Assembly: GCA_036172245.1 (NCBI GenBank)
Contig: JAYWIR010000010.1
Location: forward strand, 4,650,001 to 4,714,000
From: Raillietiella orientalis
Taxonomy: Eukaryota
Direction: 5' to 3'
Length of the DNA stretch: 64,000 bases
This document shows, one piece after another, positions 1-41,376 of the stretch. A model generated the notes under the pieces. It was not told the origin of the DNA. It ran no database searches and saw nothing but the letters and a program-made list of their open reading frames with translations. A program made the position numbers and the translations under genes. Each line of letters begins with the position of its first letter. Position 1 is the first letter of the stretch.

Positions 1-3000
1 TTGGGGGGTCGCTGAGTACTTCAAGAACCAGCGTCCCATGCAGCTCCTTGAGACTGTTCCCCACCCCACCCGAGGGTACATGTGTTAATTCTTCAAGATA
101 CCGGGAGGGGACCCTCAACCGAGAGGTTTTCCCTTTTCGAAACCCTCAATCGTCGGAGGCAACCTCCTTGCGCAAAGGAGGTTGTCTCCGACAAGAACCC
201 GGAAGAGAATCCTCCCCTTCTTTATTCTCTCCGGAGGGACTCCCGAAGGGATCCGCTCCATGTTTTTTTCTTCTCCGAAGGGAACCCGAAAGGGAACCGC
301 TCCTGTTTACTCCTCTGAAGGGAACCACGAAGGGACGCTTCCGAAATTCAGAAGGGCTCTTCCTCGAAGAAAGCGACACGCTTCTCTGGAACTCTAGAGA
401 TGGTGACACACCTACTCTACGGAGGGTCCCTCCCAAAGGGGAGTCCGCTCCTATGCACAACCGGAGGGGAACTCCCACTCCTTGATTCCTAAAAGGGACC
501 CGGAGGTCGACCGCCGTTGCGGGACCTCGTCGGGGGCATACAGTTTCACCCGCTACTGGACGTCGCCTCCGAAATCGGGTCGAACAGCGTTATCTCGCGA
601 GTCTCCGACTCGAACCCCCGACGCGCACAAACTCTTTGCGTCGATTCCTGCCGAGCATCCGAACTCGCAATTCCAGGTGCCACACGCGGAGGCCGTAATA
701 ACCACATGGCCTCCGACGAGGGCCATGGATATTTCTAGCTTTTGATGTTTTACTGAATTGCTTCTCCTCAGTCTGCATCGGAAGTCTTGTTAAACCTGTG
801 GACCACCCATAGAGAATTTGGGTATTATCCAATCCTACCACTAGTTGTTTTTCACAAAGAAACACGAGTGCATTTTGACTTTAAAATATTGTAACTTTTG
901 TGCTTTGTAACCTTTATCCTTCTTTACCAGTATGACTTTCCAAATACCACTCGTGGTACTAAAGAAAATACTTTCTTAATTATTTCCACACGTTTGAAGC
1001 TTTCTTTTGTCGGACTCAGTCCAAAGGGTGAATTTACTCGGTTTTCTTAGGCATCGATGTTTAATTATCGTCTTTCACTGTGCTATCTGTTTTAAGGAAA
1101 GTTTCCTTTAGGGAAACTCTTTGTTGCTGTTGTAACAAAAAGATGTTTATTTCGAGTGCACTTTAGCAAATAGTTTTTAAGTACGCATTATAGACATTTT
1201 TATTATAAATTTATTCAGTTCGATGCTTCTTTATTATTGCTGTCGATTTAAATTTGGATTACAATTAATCTAAATAAATGTACAAGGTACGTATAACCAC
1301 TAAACCAGTCTTATTTCCAAATAAGGAAATAAAGGACTGTTAAATGTAGTATAGAACCAGTGTGAAATAGATGAGAGAATAGTTATTTTCTTAAAACTTA
1401 TTAAAACTTAAACTCTCACAATGAAATCGACTCCAACGAAACACGAATTGTATACATAATTTTTTTTAAACTAAAGGCATCTTTCTGTATTAACATTTTA
1501 TAGTGATTACCGATACAAAAAGTAATGGTGATAATGCGGTTGCATTTAAAATAAATTTCAGGGTCACAGGTTCAGAGGTGATCATTTAAATAAATGACTG
1601 TATGTATAAAAGCTTCTAAAGAAATGAGAATATTCCATTTTAAAAATAGATTTCCTCAAAGTGACAATCATTCACCAGCGATTGCAAAGTAATCAATAAC
1701 TGTAAGGCAATTCTCGCACACAGTTTCTATACTTATTGAATCAGTAAATCATATCACACATCACTATTTCGATTTTTGTCTTGGCTACATATTTTCGGAT
1801 ACATTACACAACTGACAATTTCTTACCCTTTCTTTAACGGCTAAACTGTCATCACTGATAAATTTTAATCAAACCGAAACACACCGTCCAAGTGAATTTC
1901 GATAAACTGATTAATACTTAATGTAGCTGAAGCACTGTTAGACAGACACGAAGCACGACACACAAAACCATAACACAAAACGAATGAGATCAATGGACAT
2001 TCAATGTCAAGTCTTTGATGAGCTTTGCGACAGCGGAAACGATAAGCATTCCAATAGTTACGGAAAGATAGCATTTGTTTAATGAGGAAGAATTTTTTGA
2101 CTGAGAATCACTTTGGTACGCATAATTATGTATATTTAAAGTTGGCGCATATAAGGAATGCTAATCTAAATGATAATAAATTTTAGATTTACAATCTTAG
2201 GCCGTGTACTATCAACAGGTACCTGAAACTGCGACTAACACCATGTACATCTACAACAGTAGAGGGTTCTGCTAATCACAGTGGAGTAGAAGCAAACATT
2301 CAGTCATGCACAGGCCTTTGCATATTTTAATCCCAAAAAACGTTTGCAAAAGTACTGAACACTGTTAAAAACTCGATTCAGTGAAATATACTTCCGAAAC
2401 CCGAACTTTTATACACTTATAACAAAATTCCATCTTCTGGAAACCTATAAGTATAATATACACATAATCCAAGTACTATCGAGTTACTTTCAGTCACACA
2501 GATGGAAAAGATACAAACCCTGCTATAGTGAACTACACTAGTATTAATGGGCATGCCTAATAATTAGAATTGTAATGATGTAGTGTTAATTTTTCAAAGA
2601 CATATCAACAACATATCCTACAAGGATGAAAGTGATTGTCTCATTTCTTATCACTCTATTTATACACAACAACAATCATTCAGTGCAGTTTCCTGTCATA
2701 TAGCTTCAGCATCCTCCCATGGTTGAACTCGTGTCCAGCAGTAATTTCCAGAAATGAGTAACACCTCTACCTCCACTCAAATAACAAGAAAAAAACTTTA
2801 AACTCTACCTGTTCCAAAATTACAAATGAAAACAAGTTTCTTACCTAACAGAATTGTAAGTCAAATACAAATCAACTCCTCATTCTCAACAAAACTCAGT
2901 AAAATATTTTCACAGTGATCAAAAAATAAAAGATTAGAATCTCAAAACATACAATCTCAAAACAAGCACAAAAAATAATAATTTAAAAAAAGGCCAAAAG

Positions 3001-3163
3001 TATCTAATCCAAAGATTTAAACAACTAAAAATCACACTCTAAATACTTTAAGTAACAATGAAATATGAAACTCTACTTCACAGCAAAGGCAATCTGTCAT
3101 CATACCTGCCAACATGAAATGAAAGAACATTCCACCATATTAATGGCAAAACAATATCCATAT

Positions 3164-3313
3164 ATTCACGAAACAAAACGCCATCTCATATCCACTACTT
3201 GTGGCCACGTTTTCTGCAACACTTGTTTAGAAATTGCTGAAAAATCCCAGCACTGCTGCCCAATATGCCGCAAAAGTATCACGTCCCAACAAATGCACCG
3301 AATTTGGATATGA
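3164..3313 (+). pseudogene. Isolated last exon of the RNF4-like gene (duplicate copy without recognisable upstream exons)
   Basis: IHETKRHLISTTCGHVFCNTC...CPICRK..HRIWI* matches exon 3 of the gene at 17006-17632; the first RING CxxC and the AG acceptor are missing. Confidence 0.75.
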
Positions 3314-3374
3314 CACAAACAATGCATAAATAAAAGGTCCTTGTTTTTCATTCAAGAATGATGCTGTGGGTGCA

Positions 3375-4986
3375 TCACAATGCTTTTCTGTGATATTCCG
3401 GAGATGCTGTGCCATACTGGTCCAGACTGAATAACGAGTCTGCATTCTTCTGCATGTACCTACAAGCACATCAACAACAATCCAAACAGGATACGCACCT
3501 CAGAAAGTCCTGGATGTGCGACTGCAGCAACTGAATGCTCTTTTCATCCAGCGTGGTATATGCCAGAATGCCTCCCAAGCGCACTACGTAATTGGCAACA
3601 AGATGAGTGTACCCCAACAACAACTTACCAAACATGCGTAATAAATGGATTGGACCATACAACTGAACAATGGGTGTGTCAGCATGGGCCCTCAGGATCT
3701 ACTTACAGCCAACAGTATGGTACATTCCATCACAATGCTTTCATACTCACTTCACCATACTGGGGACGTTCAAACTTATACAGCAGCTGAGTACCCAGTA
3801 AAACTCCAAAGTACTCTTTCAAACCAGCACACACCTCCAGCATTGTACTCTCCCTGTGAGAGAAGTTCATACCTTTTGCTACAGTAAGTCAGTTTACTTC
3901 TCTGGAGCATTTGTTTTAGAGCTTTTTTGCTCTGATGTAATTGTCAACAACTTGCTCAGCAGATATTTTAGCCGGGAGAATATACAACTAACATTTTTTT
4001 GTGTTTTTTTTTTTTTTTTTCCCACTTACAATAACAGCTAAGTGTTAAGGAATCAATACTTGCTTTTTTCTGCCTGTTGATCAAATCCCAGTCATCCACA
4101 ATGTAAGGTTTCAGCTCATCCGATATCTTAATTTTGATTTCCACTCTGGTTGCATACTGATCTTGCTACAAAGAGCAGTGCAAGACACACTGCTGCTTTC
4201 TCTTTGCTTACAGATTCCACTGTGGGATCAAGCTTAAGTTTCTTCTTTTTGATGCCTTCGCCATCCTGAGCATTTTGTGAACCTGAGGCCACTTGCGCAA
4301 AGGAGGCAGCGGGACTGCTAACGCGACTTTTTGGTGTCTTCTCATTGGGAGGTGATGACACTTGATGATCAGTCTCCTTGTGCTCCTTCAGCACCTCCTT
4401 ATCCTTGAACTTGCGATTCGCTGCTTTCAGTGCTTTTTTGGATTTCCTTTAGTAAAGAGACACGGGTGCTTACTGCACATGCATGCTTCCATCGTACACA
4501 TTTTGCTTTCATACATCATACGCATTTTACATTCAGAAAACAGATTTGACAGCTCATAGGATTGACGGACACAGGACTCGCTTCGCCCATGCAGAGCATT
4601 CACGCAGCACAAAAACACACACACATGCAACACTACTTACACTTGTGCCTCGTGGGCTTTCAGCAGATCCTTTTGCTTTTGCAAGTTCGATTCGTTGTGC
4701 TTCAGGATTCGTGTTTCCGGTACCCATTCATCCCAGCTAAAACAGTTTTCACACGCAATCACACGGTGATCCACATCCACTCGCACAAACCGCCTACTTC
4801 TTGTTCCACCCAGCATAATGAACAAAATATTTCGGTTGCTTGTCCTTCAGCATCGTTTTCAAACATTTGGCTTCATAAATCAGGGGTCCATGAAAGCATA
4901 GCACTTTTTCGCCTAAAACCTCTCCCTGTCAAAACGAAAACTCAAACTTTGCAATTACCTTCGAGAAACTTGAATTTGGGAGACAT
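3375..4986 (-). pseudogene. MRG15: Second copy of MRG15/MORF4L1 with a frameshift (or a falsely duplicated copy)
   Basis: Same exon structure as 15332-16944, but near 3920-3935 it reads tac atc aga gca aaa aag ctc taa instead of tac atc aaa caa aag aaa agc tct (net -2 nt). Confidence 0.8.
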
Positions 4987-5290
4987 GACTTTCACTTTGC
5001 CGATTTTCCAGGGCCTGCGATCTCTTCTCAAACGAGGCACATCCTCAGCTCGCAAAAACTTCCCATGTGAATTCCGGAAGGAAAACCACACCGGTAAATA
5101 AGTGGTGACGGGTAGGCAGAGCGCGGCACGGCAGATCGTGTACCAACGGGATGGAGCAGATTCTCGGAATCAAAGCAGCACTAACAAAAGCATTACTTGA
5201 CACAAACGCACTTGCCGTGCACGCAACCGTTTCTACTAACAGGCGAGCATTTCCAGTCCGCAGAGCCGATATGGAAATTTCTGCACCTTT

Positions 5291-6088
5291 TCACTCCACC
5301 ACGACTTCCATGTTCGCAATAGTCAAGTAGTTTACTGCGAATTCACACATGGGCGCGGAAACCCTGCACGATTCGAAAACTTGCACCGTTGCAGGAAGAA
5401 AAATCAAACTCGCACGGCAATCCACATTCCATGGACCGCCGTCCTGTTTTCCATTTCCGCCTCCCCACCCCAACGATGCTTCCCGAAAAGCAAAACCGCC
5501 GGGAGCCCCCCGGTTCGGGACGCACGAATTCCCGGTACCACGGGGCCGTGGAAAGCCTCGGTCCCGCACCATCCTCCACCCTCTCACCATCGCGACCGGA
5601 CCCTTCCGCTCGCGTCCCTACCCGCCTTCCGTCCCCAACTTAACACGAGCCCATTTACCCTACTTACTGCTTTTCAGTCGAAAGTCCTGGAACTGCGCCA
5701 TCGGATCGGCAGCCATTCGGCAGGATTCGTGAGGAATCTCGAATCGTAGCAACGTTCCCGGCTCAAGAGGCTTCCTCCGTCAGTGGGACGGTTACGGAAA
5801 AGAATACTTTCTTCAGGGGAACCTAATGGCAACGTGTTCAAACACAACCCTTGTGCCAATACTGACAAGATCGGGTCCAGTCCCGTGTGAACGCACACGT
5901 TTGCCCGTGTCAGCGAAGACTCCGACCGTGAAGATTGTCACGTGCGATGCCTCGGAAACCTCGGCGTCATCATCATCGATAATCCGTTTTCACCCAGCCC
6001 CTCTCCTCCTCCGTCCTCTCCCCCTTCAAACATTCAAGCGTTCTACTGATTGCTGCCAAAGAAACTTCTCCCAAAGCAACGAAAGCAG
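5291..6088 (-). CDS. Putative 3' exons of an unidentified spliced gene upstream of MRG15 (needs two 1-nt frameshift corrections)
   Basis: Exons 6088-5897, 5822-5668 and 5334-5291 have GT-AG boundaries and give [128 protein letters not shown]. Confidence 0.4.
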
Positions 6089-6255
6089 CTAGAAAGACGT
6101 GAATATCTCGCAATATCACACAATGGGATGATGAACAAATGGTTCACATACCGCGTCTTTTTTGATTCTCTATCGCGACTTGCTACCGCCCTTAACGTCC
6201 AAATTCTGCAGTCGCTTTCAAAAGAAAAGAGCAGACGTGGTTCTCTGTCCATTTT

Positions 6256-6731
6256 AATAACATCAGAAGGTTGCGCATTACTGGACAAAGACTTCTCATC
6301 CGTCAGCTTTTGCAGCGGATACTTGCCAAGGCTGCCCCAATTTACTCCCATTCCAATAGGGAGGTCATGTCTTCTTCCATACCCCATAACCCTTTCCAAC
6401 TTTCCATGGCCTTTATCGCCAAAGCATATATTGCCAGCATTTATCGTTACTTTACCCAGCATTTTGATGCTGTCTGGATAATCCCGAACCAGCCTTGGAT
6501 CGCCTGCAACCTACCGTAAAAACCTCTTTATGAACCTCTTCTAGTATATAAGGTATTGCTTCTTCTACTTCCTCTGAATTCAAAGCAATCCTTACCAGCT
6601 AGGATGACGCTCGAGCTGCTTCTACTACTTCTGCAAACGCTGCTTTTTATGGTACTCGAATCCGCATGTACACCAACTGCCATAGATCGAACACCTACAG
6701 GATTTCTTTCCTTTCTTACTTGTCCAACTTC
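6256..6731 (-). pseudogene. ispG: Decayed N-terminal fragment of bacterial IspG (HMB-PP synthase, GcpE), Wolbachia/Anaplasmataceae type
   Basis: Colinear blocks across frames: [128 protein letters not shown]. These match the IspG motifs NPxxVQSM, SELVRIA, KIRINPGN and RIGVNWGSLD. In-frame TAG at 6599-6601 plus frameshifts. Confidence 0.88.
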
Positions 6732-8409
6732 AAAGTAAATGACTGGGAACTTCGAAATTGTCAACTGGCATTTCGCAAGCGAGATCTCCCTTGTTGCTCA
6801 TCACGTGAGCATCTTGACGGCTTGATCGAATCTAATTTCTCGGAAGCTTTCCAAATACTTTGCACTATGATTTGTAACATATTTTATGATTTGGAGTTGA
6901 CCTCTTTTTTTTTCCCCCACCCCCCCGCATCTTGTGCATTGGAGCTCCGATGACCACGAAGATCCGATGCACAAGTCTTTCTTAAGGAACGTTTAGCATC
7001 AGGAAACAGACCTTTGCGATATTCGCTGCATGGAGAAAACGTGGTGCTTTCCAAATCATGGCTGGTGCCTGAAAGGCTGTGACTGATTCCAAGACCTGAA
7101 AGCGTGTCTGGTCTGGAGGGATGGCACACAAGTATGCCTTCAAAACATGAGCATGAGCATGCTCTTATTCACAGCTCTGCTCCCCGGAAAAGAATCCAAA
7201 CACCTTGAATGCAGATCTCATCTCACTGTACAGCTCGACTTTTCCTTGTGCTCATCTGACCCGAGTGGTTGGAACAGGCCCGTTGGTTATGAGACCGCGA
7301 GTTTCATGCGTTAATCTGAAGGAGAGAGAAAAAAAAAAAATGAAAATACTGTTGTTTAGGTTTTCAATGAAGAAATTTCTGCATATTGCTGATGCTTGAC
7401 ATTTGTGTCTATGGAAATGTTCATCTCAACGTCATAGGGTTAGGTTTGGCGGACTGTTCAAGAAAATGTTTCTGTTGATACTCGTGCTGTCTTTCCTAAG
7501 AATCCCTGAGATTGCTTTGCTTCTAAAAGTTTCTTATATTATTTTAATGAAGTATGTTTTTCGGTCTTACCTCGATCTTAAAATTGCAGTATGTGTTCTC
7601 TTTCTTTTATGTGATTTCAAGCATTTCGTATTTATAGTCATGTGCTTCATTCTCATTTTAAGGCTTTGGACTCTTCATTTTTCTTATGTCAGTTATTGTA
7701 CAGAATTGCTGATTATGTTCTGAAGTTTCACTCAGGAAGTTTCACTCACTGCATTTTTTTGTGTGTGTGTGTAATTGTATTTGGATGTTGGTGTTTTTTT
7801 CTTGATGTTTGATATTTTGTTTTTTCGAATTGTGTCGAAGAGTGCTGAATTGCAGCTGGTTTTGTTCGGTGTGCTTTGTAAATACTTGCCGTACCCGAAG
7901 CTTTTGCTGTAGACGGAAAATCTTTGGAAAGGCTGCTTAGTAAACATCTGCTCCTTGGAATTTTGGCGAATACCTGTTCTGTTTTCGTTAGGGAATCGAC
8001 ATATTTCTCTAGGTATTTGGCAATTTTTGTCTAGTTCGGGCTTTTTCATGTAATCTTTGAACGCAAAATTGGAAGTTAAATTATGAAATTGTGTATTAGT
8101 GCTTTGAATAAAGTTACGCTGAAACATTAGTTTGTTTCTTATTCGATAAGCAAAGGGCTTACTCGGAGCTTATTGCTTGCTCATAATTTTCTTTTTAATG
8201 AAATTTTTTGTATTAATTGAATTCATATTTTACTCAATTTTAATAAGCATTTGTTCAAATCTAAAGTATTAATTTAATAATTCTAATTTTCTATGCAAAT
8301 GAAGAACATGCAGTGCAACATGTTGCTGTTTGGAAATATTGAAGTATTTTTAGGAATTGTATTCAGTAACGGTGCAAGTTATTAGAAACGATTTGTGCAC
8401 AATTCGCAA

Positions 8410-9142
8410 ATGTCCATGGTATATATATTTATTTCGAATTTTTCTAAATACATAAATAAGAAATCCGTTTTTCACCCTTATTTTGTTTTTTAGGGATATT
8501 AAAATTCGTTAAAATCCTGAGTTTTTTAAAAGGTATATGGCTTTGTGGATGACCGCTTTCTTTTTAATGTTTGTGATCTCCCAATCTTCCTGTGTACACA
8601 GATTGTGCTTATTACATTTTTCATTTCTTGATTGTTGTTTTGGAAAATAATCTACTCTATTACTCATAAAAAACTTTGAGGTGTAATTAGAAGTATAGAT
8701 TATCCATTCGAAGCTTGAAAATTATCAAGTGGCGAATAAATAGTAATCAGTAATTGGATTTGTGGCAGAGGATTTTAATTCAGTGCCTGATTTGAAAGAA
8801 ATTGGCATATATCTGTAACCACGAGTAAGCGCTTGGTACCGTGGAGCGCTGTTTAACCTATAGCATCCAATTCTTCAACGAGTTTTGGGTATCAGATACG
8901 CTGCTGATGCAAGCGGATATATAGATGTGCACTTCGTTCTCTCCTACGTGCTTTGATTGTGTGTGTATTGTGATGAGAATTTGATGTTGTTCTTACGTGA
9001 TTCATTTCCAGATGATGCTTATAGTAGTGTAATCAGAAATCGTAAATGTTTCAAAATCCAGGCAACCATTCCGTCCTTGTACATGATTGTTTATTCTACT
9101 GAAGGGAATCGAAATTCTCATCATGAACGAAATCATGGATAG
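8410..9142 (+). other. Possible 3' exons of an unidentified gene
   Basis: Run of acceptor/donor-like sites spaced like short introns (ttttttag, tacacag, gtggcag...gtaagc, ctatag, tttccag) with short open segments (EDFNSVPDLKEIG, HPILQRVLGIRYAADASGYID). I could not build a consistent frame. Confidence 0.25.
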
Positions 9143-9212
9143 TTTTTGACAACTGAAAACTATCTGTGAGAGTATGTGAAAACTTATTTGTATAACACGT
9201 ATTGCATCGAGA

Positions 9213-9991
9213 ATGTTTCAACCCAATTATTTCACGGAACTTCTGTGTACCTACATCAAGAGATGGCCTATTTTGGAGCAGTTTCGACATCATAACGAAA
9301 GACACTTAGTATGGAAACGTAAACCGCGATGGCTTCCCCCAGCAAAATCAAAAATGTTTGTTGTGCAAAAACTACCATCATTGGATCCTATTGAAGAACA
9401 AGAACTTAAGCTGTTGTATAACCATTACAAGACCACACTGAAGTCGATTCGGTAAGCATGCACAGAAGGTTACTATCACAAATTGTTAGAGCTTATTGGC
9501 ATGAGGAATTTTTGAAACAAATGGAAAAAGGGGAAACATCCATACAAAAGGCAAAAGAAGAAGAAGAACATTTAAGACTCATGGAAGAAAATAGAAAAGA
9601 AAATGAACGACTTGCTCTCCTAAGAAAAGAACGTTTGATGCAAGAATTTGACATGGAACTTCAGACAGTCCTGCAGGTAAAACAATATCCTTTATTTGCA
9701 TATTCTAGGATTACATAGCATGTGGAGCAAAAAGAAGAAGAAATTCGTAAGGAAAAATTGCAAGGAAAACAAGAACTGCTGAAGATGAAGGTGAGAAAAA
9801 AATTTATTTTGTACTCTATTTTGTGGCAATAGGTAATAGCCCAACAGTATATCAAACCAGAGCAGTTAGACCAGACAATACTGCATGCAATGGAGAACCC
9901 AGTTGATTATAACTCTTGCATAGATATAGATGGGCATGTGTACCAGGGTAGGTACACACATTCCCACATGCTAGAGACATCCAAAGAATGA
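9213..9991 (+). CDS. MRPS26: Mitochondrial ribosomal protein S26 (mS26), 4 exons, 218 aa
   Basis: Exons 9213-9451, 9490-9676, 9719-9790, 9833-9991 with GT-AG introns in phase. Motifs RKPRWLPPAKSKMF, a charged coiled coil, and ENPVDYNSCIDIDG. Confidence 0.9.
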
Positions 9992-9999
9992 ATACAAAA

Positions 10000-11393
10000 T
10001 TATTTATTTTTATGCTGCCTCTGCTGAGCTTGCTGTAACAAAGTATCAAAATCAGGAGTTTTCTGAGAAAGATGACATTGTGGGGCATCTGCACAATCAT
10101 ACATAAATGATTAATACACCAGGCATTATTCTCACCAAGGTCAGCATACTTTCGCTGTTGCCGATTGTGACTGTGTTGCACATGCTGAAAAATGGAATTC
10201 TGGAAAGCAGGCAGCTGCTGGCCCATTTTCACAGCCTGGCAAGCATCATCTTGATGCAAAAATGTTACTAGGCCTACATTTTCCCTGTAGATATTATAAG
10301 TAGCATCATACAAATAGTTTGATACTACCATTGCTTTCCATGATGTAGGCTAACATCTGAAATGGGGCCGAACTTTAAAAATGCATGTTTCAGTTCTTCT
10401 AAGGTTAAGTTTGGAGGAATATTACTAATGGAAATCGCATGTTGCTTGTCTTTCCATTGCTTCCTGTTCACAGAATAAGAATCATAAGGGCTGATGGCAT
10501 GCCCACCAGGTGTCACTTGGCAGCACCTAGATAGTCACTTTCGAAAATGAGGAACAGCTAATGTAAAAAACCTCACTTGATTGGGTTTCTTTTTCTACAT
10601 TGCAACTGACTCAAATTTAAACATGCCATGCTGGATTTCAACAAAGTAGATCTTAACACACTTTCTTGTTCCTTCACAACAGGATGAGAACAGTAATCAT
10701 GATCATGTTTGACAGCTGCCAATATATGGACTTTACTGTAAGAATGTGTAGTAGTAGCACTTGCAGCACATTCATATTTAGTAGGAATATCACAGACTGT
10801 AGGATTAACCTCTGTTAACACATCCTTTGATGCATTCTTGATTTTTGAGTTACTCCACATGGAGTTAAATGAAACCAAGGCTGCAGAAAAATAAAATTCA
10901 CTTGTAATCTCAACCCACCATTTTCTGTAGCCTCAAACTGTTCCAAAAGGCTATTTTCATCTGCTGCTTCCAGAACAGCTTTGTATGGGGATCCCAAGAG
11001 ATCTTGTTTTACAGCTGAATCATTATTCTCTAACAGATCATCTGGCAACAGTTCTGATAGCTCTTGTGCATCATAAGACTCATCAAAGTTAGGGAATGGG
11101 CCGAAAATATCCAGTGATGGAAAAAGTAGCTAATTTGCAAATTTATTTAAATAGACAAAATTAGAATAAAGTCAATAATCTCAATTTTTACAATGCTTCC
11201 ATGCACTCTTAATTAGTGAATCTATTTGAAACATTTAATACTTCACTGCAGTTATTTGATCAAATAAAAAAACAATAAAACAGATTTGTTAACAAATATT
11301 TTTGTTTATCAATTTTCCTTTTAACATGGACATAAAAGCTTTTATCACAACCTGAAGCAATTCATTCTTTTCTGAACAACCATCACAATCCAT
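10000..11393 (-). CDS. PGC-1 family coactivator (spargel/PPRC1-like), 6 exons, ~330 aa
   Basis: Exons 11393-11352, 11129-10919, 10880-10577, 10526-10329, 10284-10136, 10088-10000 join in phase (993 nt). Contains ENSLLEQFE, the HCF-binding HDHDYC, an RRM (ISISNIPPNLTLEELKHAFLKFGPI), KYADLD and C-terminal DFDTLLQQAQ. Confidence 0.85.
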
Positions 11394-13619
11394 TAGTGTT
11401 CGATGTTTTTATTCTAACTTATGCTTCACGCCGAATACCGTACGGCACAGAATGTAAGAACTCACAAAAAACACGATACCTCATTTTTTAAAACACTATC
11501 AAACGACTGGAACTGGTAGCTGAATTCTTCCATACCAGTAGAAACGGGGTTTAACATTCCACAAAAACCTGGTCATGCTTTTCAATAACCTAAACACATA
11601 CGATTCTTGTTAATTTAATTCAGTTATAACAATCACAAAGCACGAATATGAAATTCAGTATGCCAACATTTTGTTTGACCCCACCACCCCAAGACATGAG
11701 CTGACGATGCTCCCCGGTATATACTTGTCCCCCTCACAGTTAATATCTCACCACTCTGCAGTTTTGAAACAACGCGAACTGCAGCAGTAAAGTGGAAATC
11801 AATTTGCGTTAAACTACTACACTTCTACTTTTGGGGCTCGGTATGATTACTTTCAACTTGTATACACGTGTGGTGTGGCCAAGCCGTGGAGTTGCACCGG
11901 GCACACACACTTACGCACGTCAGTTTTTGCATGGCACAACACTTTTCCTAGAAAAATGTCTGTCGAATGTTATTCTTGTTGATGAAAATCACACTAGTTT
12001 GGAAACACACGGACGGGAACGCAACTCAGTGACATGTCGGCTTTCAGTTTAAAAAAGGAAAGAAAAAAAAAAAGGAAAGGGGTAAATGGCATTCACAGTG
12101 CAGTTCAGCATGAGGAAAGTTCGAACGTCTCGGGCCCTTTGCTGCTGTTGCTCAGAGCACGTCTTCGGAATAAGCTTAATTCCATCTTGGCTTCGCCCTT
12201 ATATGTTCATTCTGCTAATTATCTGCTAATTAGTTCGAGCACCGGACAGCTATTTTTCCGCATCATTAAAATGCAGCTTTTATAATCTGTAGCATGCTTA
12301 ATTGAAAGACGACTCGTTCGCGCCACTATAATAATCAAAACACATCAGGATCGAAAAAGGAATCCAACTGTGTTTTCAAAAACAAAAATATGCAAGGGTA
12401 AAGGAAAGAGTTCATGAAGCCTGGATACTTTTCTTGCTGCTGGAAGGTTTGATTTTTTCCAGCATCTTTCATTTAAATAGTGCTTTTTTTATCGGGTTTG
12501 TTGATCACAACAGTCTAGCTGGGAGGTCACTCTCGATTCGGTTACGATGCATACATCTCATAGCTTATCTTTACTCTTTTCCGGCAAGAAGTACACGAAT
12601 CAAAAGTGTAAACTTCGTGTTCAGAAGTAGGTTTCTGAGAAACAAGGATCAAAATTGCATCCAAATTATCTCAGCAACTGCTGAAAATGTAAACCGTTGG
12701 CTTCCACAGCTTTAGACTATAATACCGGGTGGGAAAGATATTTTGGGTTCTTAAATCCAGTAACAAAGGATTTAACATTCAGACCCGCAGGATTATATGA
12801 AATAAAAAAAAATCTTGAAAGAAAGCGATTGGAGCTGGGTCAAGGGAGATTGCTATTAGATTACCGGGGGTTTTAATGAGAAAATTAAAAACCCTAGTCT
12901 CTTCACTCAACAAAGGATTGAAGCATAAGACTAGTCATGCGTGACCGTGCAATTTCGAGTGTCTATTAGCTTACTGAATTTACACATAGCAAAGCATAAA
13001 GCATACTTGAATTTTCTATCCATCCAATTCACTATGTGCGCATACAAATTCATGCGTGGATAAGTGTTTTTACAAAGAAGCCTTGTTACTGCTTTGGTAT
13101 AAATGTAAATTGGCTTCATACGAGCCTAAAAATTCCTATGTTGTTGGATTATTAGTCAATAATAACAAAGTATCGTAAGAGAACTGGTTTTATGGAAGGA
13201 AAAAATGACAAACAGAGATAAACCTTTTTTTTTTTTATTATTTGCTTTATTTGTTTTCCCAATCAAATGACACTAAATGAGATTCATGTACAATGACCTG
13301 AAAAGGGATTCAAAAAATCACTTCAAGTTCAAGAACCGTAACGGCTACATTTTCGACGTCTACTAATGATGGTATAATGGAGGCAATTAAGTATAGCCAA
13401 TTACTTGCAAGATCATGCAGCAGTTCAATGAAACGTGCTGATTCACTGTGCTACTAGTGAGAATGAATTCTTCCAAGAAAGCATAACCATCCAAACCGAG
13501 TTGTCTGTGTCTAATATATAAGCTACCGAAATACACATCCATTAAAATTAAATATTTATTTATTTTCTTGACTTGAAACCCTAAAATAAAAGTTTGATCT
13601 TTATTCCTCCTGCTATGCA

Positions 13620-14600
13620 TCTATGAGTTTATTATGAGAAAATTTTACAAGGGATCGTTTAAGTGGAACAAGTGAAGAAATTTTAAAGTTAGGAATAAAG
13701 AAATCAATAAAGAACGAGTATTGGCGGGATAGCAATCGGTAAAGAAATTTTCCAAAGATCCGTTAGGAGATCAAGGGACGAAAGGATTATTGGTGACCTG
13801 TCTCAAATCTAGCCACGTAATAGGATCACAAGATCTGACTCGCAAGTTCCCCCCTACTAGAGGGCTTCAAACGTGTGGGCACCCTGCTCACGAGGTAGAC
13901 AGCGATGGAGACGAAGCTGGAACTCCTCCCGCGTTCTCTTGGTGCCATCACGGTGGCGCACGCCACTGCTAGAGTGACGGCACCATCTCAGGAAGTTAGC
14001 TTCGCCGTCTCCTCACATGGGGTATGGGTGATCCTCCCTCCAGTCTGATGAGGATCACCCGGAATTTATGGTCACTCACAAAGCATACAGCACCGTTTGT
14101 GCTTGTCCACGAACGATGGCGCTTCCCTCTATAAGGAGATTCCAGCGGAAGAGCAAAAACTGTCGTGGGTGCAGAAGGGGCAGTACAAAGCTGTCCACGA
14201 CTAAGCCGGGGCTCGCAGAGCGGCTATGGGGAATTCGGAAGGGAGGTACTCATTGGTGCATCGTTTTGGGGGCCGTCTCATCCATCAGCTGAGCAAACAT
14301 TCATGGAGAGTTAACTCCGGCTTCCTGATTCCCTGCTAGATAGCAAGAGAAATCCCGTGCCGGTGCGTTGGTTGCTGACTTCCAGCATTAAAGAATGCAG
14401 AAAGAGTCCAGAAAGTCACTGGCTTGCAATCACATGAAACGTGTCGGAGCCTGTGATCGATCCGAATGGAATCCTCCCCAAGCTCCAGACGCCACGAATG
14501 CCCTAGGATTGGACTAATTGGATTTATGTATTCATGGAATATTTCTTTTAGACTTCACAATTCTTCAGTCGCAGATCTAGAAATTTTCCTCGCAAATCCT
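13620..14600 (-). mobile_element. Probable degenerate 3' fragment of a non-LTR retrotransposon
   Basis: GC-rich segment with YCPFC...PLESP (zinc-knuckle-like) near 14140-14185 on the minus strand, then a T-rich tail and AATAAA at 13628-13633. Same layout as the end of the 20940-23600 element. Confidence 0.3.
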
Positions 14601-14605
14601 CAGGA

Positions 14606-17155
14606 CTGCCGATCCGATGGCGCAGTTCCAGGACTTTCGACTGAAAAGCAGTAAGTAGGGTAAATGGGCTCGTGTTAAGTTGGGGACGGAAGGCGGGTAG
14701 GGACGCGAGCGGAAGGGTCCGGTCGCGATGGTGAGAGGGTGGAGGATGGTGCGGGACCGAGGCTTTCCACGGCCCCGTGGTACCGGGAATTCGTGCGTCC
14801 CGAACCGGGGGGCTCCCGGCGGTTTTGCTTTTCGGGAAGCATCGTTGGGGTGGGGAGGCGGAAATGGAAAACAGGACGGCGGTCCATGGAATGTGGATTG
14901 CCGTGCGAGTTTGATTTTTCTTCCTGCAACGGTGCAAGTTTTCGAATCGTGCAGGGTTTCCGCGCCCATGTGTGAATTCGCAGTAAACTACTTGACTATT
15001 GCGAACATGGAAGTCGTGGTGGAGTGAAAAGGTGCAGAAATTTCCATATCGGCTCTGCGGACTGGAAATGCTCGCCTGTTAGTAGAAACGGTTGCGTGCA
15101 CGGCAAGTGCGTTTGTGTCAAGTAATGCTTTTGTTAGTGCTGCTTTGATTCCGAGAATCTGCTCCATCCCGTTGGTACACGATCTGCCGTGCCGCGCTCT
15201 GCCTACCCGTCACCACTTATTTACCGGTGTGGTTTTCCTTCCGGAATTCACATGGGAAGTTTTTGCGAGCTGAGGATGTGCCTCGTTTGAGAAGAGATCG
15301 CAGGCCCTGGAAAATCGGCAAAGTGAAAGTCATGTCTCCCAAATTCAAGTTTCTCGAAGGTAATTGCAAAGTTTGAGTTTTCGTTTTGACAGGGAGAGGT
15401 TTTAGGCGAAAAAGTGCTATGCTTTCATGGACCCCTGATTTATGAAGCCAAATGTTTGAAAACGATGCTGAAGGACAAGCAACCGAAATATTTTGTTCAT
15501 TATGCTGGGTGGAACAAGAAGTAGGCGGTTTGTGCGAGTGGATGTGGATCACCGTGTGATTGCGTGTGAAAACTGTTTTAGCTGGGATGAATGGGTACCG
15601 GAAACACGAATCCTGAAGCACAACGAATCGAACTTGCAAAAGCAAAAGGATCTGCTGAAAGCCCACGAGGCACAAGTGTAAGTAGTGTTGCATGTGTGTG
15701 TGTTTTTGTGCTGCGTGAATGCTCTGCATGGGCGAAGCGAGTCCTGTGTCCGTCAATCCTATGAGCTGTCAAATCTGTTTTCTGAATGTAAAATGCGTAT
15801 GATGTATGAAAGCAAAATGTGTACGATGGAAGCATGCATGTGCAGTAAGCACCCGTGTCTCTTTACTAAAGGAAATCCAAAAAAGCACTGAAAGCAGCGA
15901 ATCGCAAGTTCAAGGATAAGGAGGTGCTGAAGGAGCACAAGGAGACTGATCATCAAGTGTCATCACCTCCCAATGAGAAGACACCAAAAAGTCGCGTTAG
16001 CAGTCCCGCTGCCTCCTTTGCGCAAGTGGCCTCAGGTTCACAAAATGCTCAGGATGGCGAAGGCATCAAAAAGAAGAAACTTAAGCTTGATCCCACAGTG
16101 GAATCTGTAAGCAAAGAGAAAGCAGCAGTGTGTCTTGCACTGCTCTTTGTAGCAAGATCAGTATGCAACCAGAGTGGAAATCAAAATTAAGATATCGGAT
16201 GAGCTGAAACCTTACATTGTGGATGACTGGGATTTGATCAACAGGCAGAAAAAAGCAAGTATTGATTCCTTAACACTTAGCTGTTATTGTAAGTGGGAAA
16301 AAAAAAAAAAAAAACACAAAAAAATGTTAGTTGTATATTCTCCCGGCTAAAATATCTGCTGAGCAAGTTGTTGACAATTACATCAAACAAAAGAAAAGCT
16401 CTAAAACAAATGCTCCAGAGAAGTAAGCAGCTTACTGTAGCAAAAGGTATGAATTTCTCTCACAGGGAGAGTACAATGCTGGAGGTGTGTGCTGGTTTGA
16501 AAGAGTACTTTGGAGTTTTACTGGGTACTCAGCTGCTGTATAAGTTTGAACGTCCCCAGTATGGTGAAGTGAGTATGAAAGCATTGTGATGGAATGTACC
16601 ATACTGTTGGCTGTAAGTAGATCCTGAGGGCCCATGCTGACACACCCATTGTTCAGTTGTATGGTCCAATCCATTTATTACGCATGTTTGGTAAGTTGTT
16701 GTTGGGGTACACTCATCTTGTTGCCAATTACGTAGTGCGCTTGGGAGGCATTCTGGCATATACCACGCTGGATGAAAAGAGCATTCAGTTGCTGCAGTCG
16801 CACATCCAGGACTTTCTGAGGTGCGTATCCTGTTTGGATTGTTGTTGATGTGCTTGTAGGTACATGCAGAAGAATGCAGACTCGTTATTCAGTCTGGACC
16901 AGTATGGCACAGCATCTCCGGAATATCACAGAAAAGCATTGTGATGCACCCACAGCATCATTCTTGAATGAAAAACAAGGACCTTTTATTTATGCATTGT
17001 TTGTGTCATATCCAAATTCGGTGCATTTGTTGGGACGTGATACTTTTGCGGCATATTGGGCAGCAGTGCTGGGATTTTTCAGCAATTTCTAAACAAGTAT
17101 TGCAGAAAACGTGGCCACAAGTAGTGGACATGAGATGGCGTTTTGTTTCGTGAAT
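14606..17155. repeat. Right arm of the ~2.55 kb inverted duplication
   Basis: Reverse complement of 3164-5712 with only a few differences, mainly at 16385-16455 and 17099-17129. Confidence 0.97.
15332..16944 (+). CDS. MRG15: MRG15 / mortality factor 4-like protein 1 (chromo-barrel + MRG domain), 10 exons, 336 aa
   Basis: Exons 15332-15359, 15406-15520, 15582-15677, 15872-16106, 16153-16254, 16331-16422, 16466-16568, 16621-16690, 16736-16820, 16860-16944. Motifs [76 protein letters not shown]. Confidence 0.96.
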
Positions 17156-17632
17156 CTAGAACCAATGTTAATAATAATAAATTCTGTGCATCCGTATTAC
17201 CTTTGTATATGCATCAAAGCATACTGGGCATGCAATTTGGTTCTTGTGTTTTGATGAAATTTGATCTGTGCTTTCCAAGTGATGTGTATTTTTGATGTCA
17301 CTGAAAGATGTATCACTAATGCTGGAATTGCTTTCTAAATCTATTGTAAACTCTAGTTTTCTGTTTGAATGGCTGCTGTTCCTGGATTTTAAACACTACA
17401 AAGGCATCAATTCATCTCTTGAGTAATACATGAATATGCTTACAGTTGGCTGATAGGAGCGTTGTTTTTTTTTCTTTACTTCTTTTACAATTATGATTTC
17501 ATCTGAACCAAATTCTTCTGAATTCTTGCTAGTGCCAGCTTTTGGTGTATAATCTATTCTTGGTCTAGTCCTTGTCCGTGGTCTCATACTTCGTAAGCTT
17601 TGGGGAGAGTACTTATCACTTCTTGAACTCAT
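17006..17632 (-). CDS. RNF4/Degringolade-like SUMO-targeted RING E3 ligase, 3 exons, 177 aa
   Basis: Exons 17632-17444, 17395-17201, 17155-17006. SIM-like DEIIIV and FTIDLE motifs; C-terminal C3HC4 RING CPVCFD...STTCGHVFCNTC...CPICRK..HRIWI. Confidence 0.85.
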
Positions 17633-20600
17633 GCCACGCAATATAGGATCTGGATGGAATGTGCAGATAGTATAATTAGAACTGACATGAGATTGCAATA
17701 AATCCACAAAAATAATTTAACATCATGCTGAACTTAAAATATTCGGACATATAAGCAATATTTCTGTCTATGAATATTTTGTTGAACCTTATTAAGAAAT
17801 GTTTCTGATCTCTTCCAAAATTCCTTACTTTACCATGAATGTTGATCCTGATGAGGATCTTAAGTACAGATGATGTTTAGACGTTATGACATGTATTGAA
17901 CACTACCAATATTAACTTAAAACTTAATTTTATATTAAATACCTTTCGCTCGGGGCAATGAAATGATGTCAATGATTAAACAACAATTTGCAATTATTGT
18001 GGAAAATCACTCAACACATAAATTAAGCTTGATTGCTTTGGTAATCTTATAATGTGTTTACTATTAGTTCATATTGAGACCGTTTTCAAATGTGTTGCTT
18101 TCAACTTTAGACCACACACGGGCCTTTCGGACTTACGCTGCACGTGAAATATGGTAACTTGTTCCCTCGCATATTTTCCAAAGCGTTTGCTAAAACGGCT
18201 TGCTTCTTGTGTGTAGAATGAGGAATCAAACATTTCGATTTCTTTCAGGGGATGAAATATTTGGAAAGAATACAGATTTCAGAAAGCTAATTCACTTGAA
18301 CCTCGGACTGCGGAGTAGAAGCAACGGAATTATTCCACAAAGCTGCATATGGCAAACTGTGCAGGTTCTGTAATGTTTACTCGAAAATATAAATGCACGA
18401 AAATTCAAATCCAATATAAACGGAAAAAACCGTGCTTACCATTTTTGATAATAGCCTTTTTCAGTGCTATCAGAAACAAATCAGATAGAAGGTGATAGGA
18501 AAACATACAAATAAAGCACAAGACCATGTAAACCGATTTCCGGAGCTTGGAAACAACACTCATAACAATTTCTGTTTGGATTTCTGGCTAAGCGCATTTG
18601 GCTTGTCAGAATGTTGAAACGTAGACGATTTTTCCGTACAATTTAATGAACCATCATTACCTTAAATGTTCACGATTGCATTGGAATGTCTCATTAGTGG
18701 GACGAAAAGGGAGAAAAAAAAATACTTTTTTTCCGAGGCACCATGCCTAATCGGAATTCTGGAGCATGTTAATCAACCGTTGTGAATTAATAGTCTAGAA
18801 CTCATTTCGTGTTAAAATGTTTCAAATTTAATCAAAACATCCTCTACTAACAAACAGTTTCAATCGGAAAGTGAAACCCGTTCTTTTATGCAGCGCCTGT
18901 CTAGTTCATACATCGGGGTTTTGGCTGAATCATTAAACCTAGTAAAAAAGACCATTACATCGGAATTGATTTCACTTCATTGATAATTTCGAAGTATTGG
19001 AAAATCATGTATTTCCTCAATAGAAAAAAAAAATGAAATGACCTCTTTACGAAATGAACTCAATTAAAAGAGAGCAAGAATGCTTGAGATATATAAAAAT
19101 CTCTCCGAGGCATCGACACGACCCCAGCAGCACACCACTGCTTCGCTAATAGGCTCAACGTGTTCTTGCGATATATGTGAAATAGGCAAATGCAGTTCTA
19201 TAGTATGTATTGAAACGTGTCCTGTCGTTTCCCTACATATTAATAATAATACACAGTTCACTTTTTCACTTCCTTTACAAGATTTAAGGGAGCTTTGTTC
19301 AGGATGGAGAATGTTCATGGTTGTTATGCATCCAAGTTGTTGTGGCTACAGGCATTGTAGTTTAATGGTGTTAGGTGATGCAGCCAAGCGATTAGTGACG
19401 TGGATTGTGTTAGAGGATGTTCCTTTAGTGAAATGTTCTTTGTTCTTACTCAAAGCTAAAGAACGGAAAACTGTATACAGAGCTTCGTAGTCATTGTTCT
19501 AAGGAAAAGCATCAGAACACATCTATTTGTGTAAATGGCTCATTGGCTTTTTAATTAATCGAAGCATTGGATTTGTACGATTTATTTGGATTTCGGATGA
19601 TTTAAACATCCTTTTTTGCAAATTTCATTACAAAGTCCTTCATACGAGAAGAACCAAATAAGCAAAAACAAAACATGAATCCGCCGATTGCTCACGTAGC
19701 AGCTGTTTAGAGAACTCTCCTGGTCTGTCAGACCATTCAGTGTTTACTGTTGTAGGTGGAAATTGGCGGAGTATGAGAAATCGAACTACTCAAGCAGCCG
19801 GAGATGGGGATTCTAAAATACCATACTAGGTGTTTTACTTGTATTCTGAATTACGAAATTCTTGTTTAGAGCTTCCAGATCGGTAGGAGGAGTAAAAAGG
19901 ACAAACAAGTAAGCAATGGAGGGAGAATATGATATGGCAGTAGAAGACCCTGAATTTTTCCCATAGAAATCTGATATTTAGTGTGATTTTGATTCTTTGT
20001 AGTTGTTATGAAAGGTCAAGCGAGATAAATGAATTCAAGTGTGCTGTATGCACTCGAAGGACACTTGTGCTCTCATCTAACGAGAGCGCAAAAACTGAAT
20101 CCATCAGCACTTCTCGTCATCTAAGAATACACTTCATGCTTTCAGATTAGGATCGGACCTACAGAATTATCTTTCAGGATCCATCCTCTGGCAAAATGAA
20201 CCTCTTATTCCCAGGATGTGATGACAATCATGTAAAAAAAAAAAGAGGCCTAACGGAATCGACTATCCCATCTCGAGTTTTAGCATACATTTTGATGCTT
20301 TGAGTCTTTTCGCAGTCCAACATAACTTATAGAATATGTGAAATAAATATAAAAAATCTCCGCACTCCATTCTTTCAGGAAGAGCTGGAAGAGTGCCTTG
20401 AGCATCCTGTTTCATTTTCGGAGATCTTGGAACACGCAATTCCTTAACGATCACTCAATGAAACTGAAATAAATGTTGAACAGCGTGCAAAAATAGGAGC
20501 AAAAAAATTTTTTTTGCTTCTCATGGAGGCGTGGAAATTATTTTTGTGTCGTTATGAAAGTGAAGAAACTTCATCGGCACTTTATCTATCCCCCTGTTAC

Positions 20601-26600: not shown

Positions 26601-28679
26601 ATCAAATTCATTCTTTTTGGTGAATGACTGTTTTATGAGTTGTTTTCATAAAAAACTAAAACATCCTGAACATGTCTCATCTAAAAATTCCTTGCTTATT
26701 GCAAAAAAAAAGAAAAGATACATCATAAAAATGTACTGCTTTCAATTTCAAAGTGAAGTTAGATATTTCTTTCATTTGTTTTTTTAATACCCATTATAAG
26801 AATCCATATCAATATTTTTTTTATTTGTCCATTTCTAAAAGTGACACGCGCATAAAGAACCCGCTTATGGTTGAAACAAAAACATCCTGATGCTATATTC
26901 AAGAACTTTCAAATGTTAATCAATATTTATTTGAATTCCCATCATAAACACTTTGTATATCCTTTTCTCTAGAAAACCATAGGTGCCAATTATACAAGTT
27001 TTCAAATAACTAAAACTCTGATACAAAATTTTCAATCCTGATTAGCTCTAAGCATACTTTGCTGTTTTTTATGCTCGACTAAAGTTAATTTACAGCTGAT
27101 TTTGTGGTATTTTTCTTTTTTTTCAATACATTTGTGCCTATCAACAAAACAGTCTTGACATTGCTATCTAGTTATCAGCCACTGTCAAAATTATTGTTAG
27201 CACATGTTTTTATATCCAATACTTTTGCAATGTCTGGTGTTAGTACAAGCAATGTGATATTTTTATTTTTGCATGCATACTGTCTCATTACAGCTATTCA
27301 AAATTTCCTTTCTTCCATTTGTTTATGACATACATCTACTGTGATCACCCATTTTGATGAAAGATTCCTAAAGAGTGTGATTTATTTTATGTCTTCTGAA
27401 GTTCGGTATTTAGTTGCCTCACTGTGTTCCCCCCAGATTTGTTTAAGCAGCATTCCATGCCGGCCAAGACATTTCAGTAGCTGCAGTTTTGAAAAATTAA
27501 CCCTTTTCTTGATATCTAAGAAAGTGAACGCTATCCAAAGGAGAAGGAAAAGAAGCAAAGTCCTTGCAAGTTTCATTCAAACATCTGCAAACAGTTCTAC
27601 TGCTTTCTTTGATCTGTTGCATTTCTTTGATCTGAAACACCAAACCGGAAATCTTGTACTTCTGTTCTTTGGATTCCACTGGATCGCTCTTATGTTTACG
27701 TTTCAAAAATTCTTCGTGGATGAATACTATATTATTTTTCCTTTTTTTTTTAATCAAAATTTACTTGGAGAACTCGTGTATTTCAAAGCATTTTCACCTT
27801 GTTTCGTGCAGCGTACTCAGGTAATGTTATTTTATTGATGTAATTAGTTGTTCAGTTAATCTAAAGCTATGTGTACTTAATGTACAGGTAAAAGCAACAA
27901 TTTTTTCATGCACTTTAGCACATTTTCTGCACGCTAGATACAATATCTAATAACTTTTGCGTGCTACATATACTTTTTCTGCGTGAAATTTCTCGTGATG
28001 GCTTAGATAACACAGATAATGCTTCAAATATTTATAGCTTTAATTTTCCGCATTCAGTGTTTATTTGTCTGCTTTCCTTTCCTTCCTTTTTTTTTTTTTT
28101 TCCTGACTACCAAACTCTTTCGGCATTTTGCCGTTATCTGCAATTTATTCTGTTAATAAGAACAAGTTGTGTGAAACGAATGAGAAGCGATTTAAAATGC
28201 AGAGGAATTTTTCAGAGGAAACCTTTCCAAGCGCGAGTTCTGTTTGGAAGGAGAAAGGCGACAGTTCAGCTGGGATAGGTTGGATGCTTCCCCGTCCATC
28301 CTTCCCGGACAAGTGCTTCCACAAAAACATTTCCTCCTCCTAGGTGGTTCCCCAAACGGTAGTTGCAAAGGAAATCCGGGAGGAGCCAGCATTTTCTTCC
28401 GGCAGATAAGAACTGCGCAGACCCAAGTCAAACTTGGTCCCGATGGAACGTGGGAAACCGCGCTTTCCCGTGCCGTTCCACAAAGGAAGAAGACCTCACT
28501 GCTAAAAGTGGAGATGGTCCACGTCTCCTCCGCGGGGATGTCGGCGGCATCCGGCGGGCCACTCTGCCGTCGCGGCGTGCCATCTATTGCGCGCCAATGG
28601 AGTTACATTTTCGGTCCCTCGATCCCGTGTGCTTCGCTGTCAGTTACGCACGATGAGTGATGATGCTGTAAGCGTGGTG

Positions 28680-40000: not shown

Positions 40001-41376
40001 CCGGAAGTGATGCAGAAGGGATTCCTAATGAGGATTTGCCAAACAGTTGGGAATGCCCTCAATGCTGCCGTGAAGGTCGCAATCTGGAAGCAAAACCCCG
40101 TCATTTTCGTGCTCGCAGTAAAGTAGTATCGGCAACTCAAGAGGCAGATGATGCTCACGATGCAACAGAGCTTGAGAAGGAAAACTGTGATGCTGAAGCA
40201 TCTAATCAACTTAATTTGAGTTTTGGTCAAGATGAAATCAGCAGTGGCAAGCGTAAACTGGAGAATGTTAACGATGAAGCTAATCATGTCAAAAAAATAA
40301 AGGAAGTAGATTCTTCCGATAGAAGCAGTGAAGAGCCAGTTAAGTGTGCAGCAAACCTGTTATCATGCACACCAGGCTTTAAAAAAAACCTTGGCAAACA
40401 TCACAAAAACCAGTTGGCCACTAAACTGCAGTCTCTTGCTCTACCTCGCCCTCTTAAGAAATCTGCACATCTGACCCGACCTGCTTCTGCACATCAGGAT
40501 GATGATGAACTCGATTTGTTATTGCGTACCAACCCACAAGAAAGAGCAGCCCTTAATCTCGCACTTGAAAAAAGTGTAATGTTGCATGTGTTTCGCTTCC
40601 TCACTGTATCTGAATTATGTTCAGCAATGTTAGTGTGTCGTGCATGGCATCGAATTTGTTCAGATCGCCGTTTGTGGTTGCATATAGACTTATCTCATCG
40701 AAAAATTTGCCCTTCTCATATGACTGGAGTGGTTCGTCGACAGCCAGAAAGAGCTGATTTTAGCTGGAGTTCTGTAACACGTAAACAGCTGGAATGGCTT
40801 GTTGGCAGATTACCCCATTTGTCACATTTAGCACTACAAGGTTGCAGTTGGCATGTCATAAGTGCCTTGCGTACCTGTAACTGTCCCCTTCTTCTCTCAC
40901 TTGATTTGCGTTTCATGGAAGGCCTCAATGACACTCATATTAGAGATATTTTATCACCACCATTGGATTCACGTCCAGGATTAGTGGATAGCAAGAGCCG
41001 CCTGCGCAACCTGCGTGACCTTTGTTTAGCAGGATGTGACATTTCTGATGTCAGTTTGCGTTATATAGCACAACATTTAAAACTTCTCAGTCGCTTAGAC
41101 ATAAGCTCGTGTTACAAAATAACAGATGCAGGCATAGCTTTGCTAGCAGCATCTGGATCTCCTATGCAGGAATCCCTAACTGCACTTGATTTACGGGGAT
41201 GTAAAAATATATCTGATTCTGGTGTAGAGCATCTCAAAAATTGTGAAGCCTTGGTTCATTTGGACTTGCAGCATACTCCACTGATTACATATGCTGCAGT
41301 GCGCAATTTGGTGATGAACAGTAGACATCCTTTGCAAGCAACAGCTGATAAGCTTGTGGAACTGCGAGTCACATGA
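29388..41376 (+). CDS. KDM2: Lysine-specific demethylase 2 (JmjC, CXXC, PHD, F-box, LRR), 5 coding exons, ~1033 aa
   Basis: Exons 29388-29432 (MPADETSKRETARNL), 38173-38317, 38375-39144, 39194-39553, 39595-41376 join in phase. JmjC TDFHVDFGGTSVWYH...GWIHAV; CXXC RRRRTRCRRCEACLREDCGECAFC; PHD, F-box and LRRs. The first exon is less certain than the rest. Confidence 0.95.
33680..34330. promoter_or_regulatory. CpG-island-like element inside KDM2 intron (possible alternative promoter/enhancer)
   Basis: Very GC/CpG-rich, with a (GA)n tract, palindrome GCGCGCATGCGCGC at 34182-34195 containing the NRF1/EWG consensus, a YY1-like AACATGGC, and donor g|gtgagc at 33855. Confidence 0.5.
34055..34083. 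repeat. (AG)n microsatellite
   Basis: About 14 AG units read directly. Confidence 0.95.

Follow-up and report, generated by a model that had tools for sequence, protein, structure and literature searches.

Host chromosomes often acquire Wolbachia DNA, and such transfers are well documented. In the lungworm Dictyocaulus viviparus, nearly 1 Mb of Wolbachia fragments from hundreds of genes has been described and placed near clade F, and their frameshifts, in-frame stops and long terminal branch were read as neutral decay of a past infection (Koutsovoulos et al. 2014, PMC4046930). Wolbachia-free filarial nematodes are likewise described as carrying many short, degenerate Wolbachia gene fragments, which have been taken as evidence of former infection (McNulty et al. 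2010, PMC2882956; 'Ghosts of symbionts past', PMC12693587). The nuclear Wolbachia transfers (nuwts) of Drosophila ananassae and Brugia malayi, products of the same process of Wolbachia-to-host DNA transfer, are reported to be recent insertions, large or present in duplicate, that hardly differ from the resident symbiont and are transcribed in part (PMC4299567, PMC3849323). An analogy made in the lungworm study is that with NUMTs, endosymbiont or organelle DNA in nuclear chromosomes that is 'dead on arrival' and decays neutrally (PMC4046930).

Here we describe a 475-nt remnant of the bacterial gene ispG in a 64-kb stretch of animal DNA, hereafter the window, which comprises all of the host DNA analysed. 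The remnant is very probably a nuwt that has decayed neutrally in the host chromosome. Like the lungworm fossils it has frameshifts, an in-frame stop and a long terminal branch, and the clade near which those fossils were placed includes the strains most similar to it (PMC4046930). Unlike the roughly 1 Mb found in that nematode, it is a single one-gene piece in arthropod DNA; the filarial cases differ from it in their nematode hosts and in the number of fragments. Compared with the nuwts of D. ananassae and B. malayi it is a small piece, the only one in the window, with a divergence of about 25%, and it is unlike NUMTs in that the donor is a facultative bacterial symbiont and not a mitochondrion. 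The mechanism of transfer is thus not new; in the literature on ispG and on crustacean hosts we found no report of this particular fragment.

The initial annotation had proposed an ispG-like fragment at 6256..6731, with about 160 codons colinear with bacterial IspG. By tblastn, blastn and codon alignment its coordinates proved right to within one base (Table 1): the minus strand is colinear with codons 25-194 (nt 73-581) of the 424-codon Wolbachia ispG, and the peptides quoted in that annotation, including strings of 40 and 33 protein letters, are found on this strand, spread over three frames. Seven Wolbachia-type IspG proteins searched against the whole window by tblastn yielded three colinear segments with a linked E value of 9.6e-38, and elsewhere in the 64 kb these queries gave no match below E = 0.4. 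At the DNA level, all 25 Wolbachia-group ispG loci used as blastn queries matched 6254-6737 and nowhere else in the window. The best identity was 74.6% over 508 columns (E 1.2e-89), to the strain of the cicada Tettigetta, followed by the strains of the louse Penenirmus (74.2%) and of Mansonella ozzardi (73.7%). Among 60 species-level Wolbachia genomes, 56 matched the fragment, mostly over about its whole length with a minority shorter; none exceeded 75% identity and none reached past the fragment. With the register restored in the codon alignment, 102 of 154 aligned codons are identical to those of the Penenirmus louse strain.

Searches at the protein level gave the same assignment. In a search of 5.8 billion proteins that was confined to longer proteins, 8 of 46 candidates passed, and the best was a Wolbachia IspG with 70% identity over 94% of the 85-aa query; source names were attached to four of the eight matches, three of them Wolbachia and one a Rickettsiales MAG (95% identical to the Wolbachia query). 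A HMMER search of the 85-aa ispG segment against 1.84 billion representatives returned 88 matches, of which the best five were inspected. The top one, P0281 (59% identity), is a Wolbachia-like piece of IspG, and P0285 bears IspG motifs; the remaining 83 have 31-42% identity. Ranks 2-4 of this search (P0282, P0283 and P0284, of 1572, 710 and 1315 aa) were rejected as tandem-repeat proteins that are not IspG-like; their spurious scores come from adding up numerous weak matches to the repeats, with 0 to 13 matched stretches per protein. Because the representatives stand for 50% clusters, this search does not identify the nearest relative. On the longest open reading frame, Pfam GcpE (PF04551) scored E 2.9e-5 and 23.7 bits, under its cut-off of 32, and the NCBIfam IspG models reached E 4.3e-7, with 29 bits against a cut-off of 345 and 23.1 against 280 (NF001540, TIGR00612). 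These profile matches span only profile positions of about 91-157 and do not reach the curated cut-offs. The fragment is homologous to IspG in its N-terminal TIM barrel. Among the IspG sequences collected, a 383-aa protein (P0153) in the 90% cluster of the Drosophila melanogaster Wolbachia protein is annotated as belonging to the spider Trichonephila clavata; it is either a symbiont sequence in that assembly or another transfer.

Table 1. Position of the ispG fragment, its lesions and the neighbouring host features in the window
Feature	Position	Strand	Remarks
ispG fragment (nuwt)	6257..6731	(-)	TIM-barrel part only; tblastn, blastn, codon alignment
tblastn segment 1	6731-6588	(-)	aa 25-73
tblastn segment 2	6631-6506	(-)	aa 63-108
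tblastn segment 3	6495-6256	(-)	aa 115-194
In-frame stop TAG	6599..6601	(-)	GAG in Wolbachia, codon 73; codon alignment
3-nt deletion, in frame	6712..6713	(-)	ispG nt 92-94; alignment
11-nt deletion, frameshifting	6632..6633	(-)	ispG nt 175-185; alignment
12-nt deletion, in frame	6516..6517	(-)	ispG nt 302-313; alignment
8-nt deletion, frameshifting	6494..6495	(-)	ispG nt 336-343; alignment
155-codon stop-free frame	6043..6510	(-)	first 85 codons, last ispG segment; other 70, host flank without ispG homology
RING exon	3062-3310		Pfam
MRG15-like gene	3474..4846	(-)	nearest host gene; downstream of fragment, same strand; inside inverted-repeat arm
MRG domain ORF segments	3474-3698, 3971-4165	(-)	Pfam MRG, E 7e-9 and 2.8e-6
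Chromo-like segment of MRG15-like gene	4640-4846	(-)	MSL3_chromo-like, E 2.2e-4, under its cut-off
mRpS26 ORF segments	9180..9715	(+)	Pfam MRP-S26, E 1.1e-11 and 4.7e-7
RRM exon	10328-10534		Pfam
KDM2 JmjC, 345 codons	38122-39156	(+)	Pfam
KDM2 CXXC, PHD, F-box and LRR, 607 codons	39553-41373	(+)	Pfam
CAP N-terminal domain	46461-47102	(-)	Pfam

For phylogenetic analysis we used a codon alignment of 22 Wolbachia and Candidatus Mesenet (23 loci), eight Rickettsiales outgroups and the fragment. Left out were L024 and L025, in which ispG matched only in pieces, L026-L031, which repeat loci already used, and L032 and L033; of the 27 outgroup loci, eight were used and L042-L060 omitted. Some of these records have peculiarities of their own. 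The IspG protein matches L025 (Wolbachia of Onchocerca ochengi, 6001-7123) and L024 (WOLB0982, 6001-6825) in pieces of 47-88% identity, and L009 (Wolbachia of Psylliodes) has an in-frame stop at ispG codon 190, so that ispG looks degraded in these three Wolbachia records.

In the maximum-likelihood tree (TIM3+F+G4, 524 columns, 22 Wolbachia strains), Wolbachia and the fragment together form a clade with SH-aLRT/UFBoot support of 99.9/100 against Mesenet and the other Rickettsiales outgroups, and the same clade received a UFBoot of 100 when 19 further Wolbachia were added (41 strains). The best matches and this phylogeny thus bear out the Wolbachia/Anaplasmataceae source that the initial annotation had suggested from resemblance. 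The fragment's terminal branch, at 0.35 substitutions per site, is several-fold longer than any Wolbachia tip. The subclade containing the fragment was recovered with 92.3/77 in the 22-strain tree, and the corresponding subclade with 95% in the 41-strain tree; support for a particular sister group was 0/23 and 38, respectively. In AU tests, placement with F-like strains equalled the maximum-likelihood tree (p 0.60). A further constraint, in which a hand-picked set of A/B/D/F-type strains was monophyletic without the fragment (tree 4, p-AU 0.034), was set aside, as the strains it groups do not form a clade when the tree is left unconstrained.

By its sequence, then, the donor is a Wolbachia lineage; its supergroup placement is without support, and a deep or unsampled lineage is possible. 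A donor outside the sampled (crown) Wolbachia altogether, that is, a stem lineage, an unsampled deep relative or another symbiont of the Anaplasmataceae, would fit several of these observations: a topology that keeps the 22 sampled Wolbachia together and leaves the fragment outside is not rejected (delta lnL 4.8, p-AU 0.27), the closest sampled genome is no nearer than 75%, and the synonymous distance estimated for the bacterial phase of its history (see below) is of the order of distances between supergroups. We nonetheless judge such a donor unlikely. The maximum-likelihood trees nest the fragment within Wolbachia, in the subclade described above; identity drops to 59% for Mesenet and to at most 62% for the other Rickettsiales outgroups; and the Wolbachia-type sequence VGC..LV.DYPD.IKMLGK is also present in the fragment.

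Neither the intact frame nor the conserved motifs of an IspG gene survive. The reading frame is broken by one TAG stop and by two of four deletions (3, 11, 12 and 8 nt) relative to Wolbachia, with no insertions, and two motifs are changed, RINPGN to TINAGN and RIGVN to GMGVN. These lesions, which the initial annotation had listed together with a truncation before the Fe-S domain, all appear in the codon-aware alignment. Nothing past aa 194 was matched by tblastn anywhere in the window, which leaves the C-terminal 4Fe-4S domain missing; full Wolbachia IspG proteins additionally bear PF26540. The ends of the fragment are sharp and identical against every reference. Downstream, the flank is not homologous to the continuation of ispG (65 of 300 shuffles reach the observed score). 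A possible upstream extension toward the ispG start, given by a weak tblastn match to aa 13 at 6770, was rejected since DNA-level support is absent (269 of 300 shuffles reach the score). Simple sequence, ttttttttt ccccc a ccccccc, occurs at 6898-6926, some 170 nt from the fragment in the upstream direction of the minus strand. The ispG fragment is dead. With about 75 neutral substitutions, of which a fraction of 63/1521 would create a stop, about three stops are expected and one was seen; as the Poisson probability of at most one stop is about 0.18, this deficit is not significant.

The composition of the fragment has also changed. Its GC content of 44.2% exceeds that of all 22 Wolbachia homologues (30.3-38.7%), and the surrounding 1-kb host bin has 44%. 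Relative to a consensus of 15 Wolbachia sequences, AT-to-GC changes number 61 and GC-to-AT changes 28; the GC content of the fragment has drifted toward that of the host. Differences from the same consensus amount to 19%, 19% and 30% at codon positions 1, 2 and 3. Nei-Gojobori omega between the fragment and 21 Wolbachia references ranges from 0.20 to 0.41, compared with a pooled omega of 0.118 over 202 Wolbachia-Wolbachia pairs. Nonsynonymous divergence is raised in both halves of the fragment, with a pN of 0.224 against 0.079 between Wolbachia in the first half and of 0.168 against 0.075 in the second, and pN/pS is 0.53 and 0.31, respectively. Constraint on the fragment is relaxed. An omega below 1 implies at the same time that selection was acting in the bacterial lineage while some of the divergence accumulated.

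We described this history by a simple two-phase model, in which a bacterial phase at omega 0.118 is followed by a neutral phase, and on which the split between the two components rests. Under this model the neutral component comes to about 0.16 substitutions per site (0.10-0.19 over references), and the estimated bacterial-phase synonymous distance to the nearest strains to about 0.33-0.39, comparable to distances between supergroups. A neutral component of this size points to an old insertion. Neutral rates in arthropods are roughly 1e-9 to 1e-8 per site per year; applied to this neutral component, such rates would put the age of the insertion on the order of 10-150 million years, with wide error.

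The fragment lies among animal genes, recognised here as separate ORF segments with animal domain families. An MRG15-like gene, mRpS26, KDM2 and CAP are on the same sequence, in agreement with the animal nuclear context given in the initial annotation. The fragment is intergenic, with the MRG15-like gene at most 1.4 kb away on one side, in the same orientation, and mRpS26 2.4 kb away on the other; KDM2 and CAP lie farther off. Within the assembled window it is thus contiguous with host nuclear genes, as a nuwt should be.

The gene for the KDM2-type histone demethylase (38122-41373, plus strand) consists of two very large exons. In protein searches with the KDM2 exon no relative exceeded 46% identity over the full length; over about a third of the exon the figure is 53%. 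A tree of 30 animal KDM2 proteins joins the window's KDM2 to insects, with myriapods and chelicerates excluded (100%), and places it outside the sampled winged insects (100%), on a long branch that was possibly pulled toward the base. Because of this long branch, and because the sample is without crustaceans or wingless hexapods, we call the host only a divergent pancrustacean. Elsewhere in the window, a GC-rich block at 45000-62000 (49-59% GC) has many long open frames on both strands, other stretches having 31-40% GC; the open frames of this block gave no Pfam match except the CAP N-terminal domain.

The MRG15-like gene also lies within an inverted repeat with arms at 3161-5712 and 14606-17158. 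The inner 1790 nt of the arms (3923-5712 and 14606-16395) are 100% complementary, and the outer 728 nt are 99% complementary, with a few substitutions and with small indels near 3889-3922. The MRG15-like gene is present once in each arm, as is part of a RING exon; the two copies face each other, and the 8.9-kb spacer between the arms contains the ispG fragment, mRpS26 and the RRM exon. The repeat could be a recent inverted duplication, a product of gene conversion, or partly an effect of assembly.

Wolbachia-like DNA in the window is, as far as the searches of its sequence go, confined to the fragment. DNA searches compared the 64 kb with five genomes, four of Wolbachia and one of Mesenet; only 6257-6731 matched, bar one 48-nt match of 26888-26938 to one Wolbachia genome (E 0.007), which is AT-rich and was taken as chance. 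When the whole window was compared by tblastx with a complete Wolbachia genome of 1,291,339 bp, all 16 matching segments fell within 6256-6708, and Pfam scans of 280 window ORFs revealed no further bacterial-type family. No symbiont DNA adjoins the fragment, and with its signs of neutral decay it does not look like part of a bacterial genome.

These results bear on the possibility that the fragment is an artefact of assembly or contamination, in which assembly placed in a host contig a read that belongs to a live Wolbachia, or to an ispG pseudogene of Wolbachia. Such a pseudogene is conceivable, as some living Wolbachia seem to have a degraded ispG (the Onchocerca ochengi strain, WOLB0982). 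How well the locus is assembled is a general question in view of the perfect 1790-nt inverted repeat close by, and the junctions of the fragment are not confirmed by independent reads: a public DNA run of low coverage contained 6% of sampled words and consisted of contigs of about 151 nt, which were compared with positions 1-20000, with 5563-5852 matched exactly and, among the matches listed, no depth in the bin 6004-6670, which covers most of the fragment. Against this reading, the fragment differs by at least 23% from each of the 56 Wolbachia species genomes that match it, and it is broken and just 475 nt long, with sharp ends that are constant against every reference. Neither flank nor the rest of the 64 kb is Wolbachia-like by DNA search or tblastx, the GC content of the fragment equals that of local host DNA, and each side has a host gene close by, within 1.4 kb on one and 2.4 kb on the other. 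Since the outer parts of the repeat arms are not identical but show a few substitutions and indels, a simple fold-back artefact does not explain the repeat. Taken together, the stop, the two frameshifting deletions, the raised dN, the GC content of 44% where Wolbachia has 30-39%, and the lack of adjoining Wolbachia DNA argue against a live symbiont or contamination and for the old, decaying insertion that the initial annotation had proposed. We give the artefact almost no credence.

A different question is whether the host has put the inserted DNA to use. The fragment is oriented like the MRG15-like gene and lies at most 1.4 kb upstream of it, so that co-option could take the form of a 5' exon or promoter element of that gene, or of a protein expressed from the 155-codon stop-free frame, which extends 70 codons beyond the bacterial part (Table 1). 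The somewhat lower pN/pS of the second half (0.31 against 0.53) would speak for such use, but pN in this half is still 2.2 times the Wolbachia-Wolbachia value. Of a TIM barrel the frame itself has no more than about 80 codons; it is without the Fe-S domain and has changed residues in conserved motifs. Per frame, a run of 70 further open codons arises by chance with a probability of about 0.03-0.04, which is nothing unusual among 205 window ORFs of at least 90 aa, and on its sequence the frame is probably a chance ORF. To our knowledge, animals have no MEP pathway in which a partial IspG could act. Co-option is, in our assessment, highly improbable.

The observations are best accounted for by a nuwt that has decayed neutrally. 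A piece of DNA from a Wolbachia endosymbiont would have become integrated into a germline chromosome of the arthropod host, in the intergenic space between the MRG15-like gene and mRpS26, presumably by end-joining at a chromosome break. The inserted piece may have carried ispG codons 25-194 only, or may later have been trimmed to them. It would have been without function, dead on arrival or soon after, presumably never expressed, and would then have evolved neutrally.

For annotation, the locus is a warning that this ispG-like match is neither a host gene of the MEP pathway nor contamination to be removed. For the host, the decayed fragment would mark past germline Wolbachia in this lineage or in an ancestor. 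It is possible, if rather doubtful, that it records an ancient Wolbachia infection in a pancrustacean lineage branching outside the sampled winged insects, by a donor lineage absent from the 60 species-level Wolbachia genomes. If the host group has little or no record of Wolbachia, or if relatives share the insertion, the fragment could date an ancient association. Were this to hold and orthologous copies to occur in related hosts, the species with and without the insertion could provide a host-calibrated minimum age for an association between Wolbachia and arthropods, which is otherwise hard to date.
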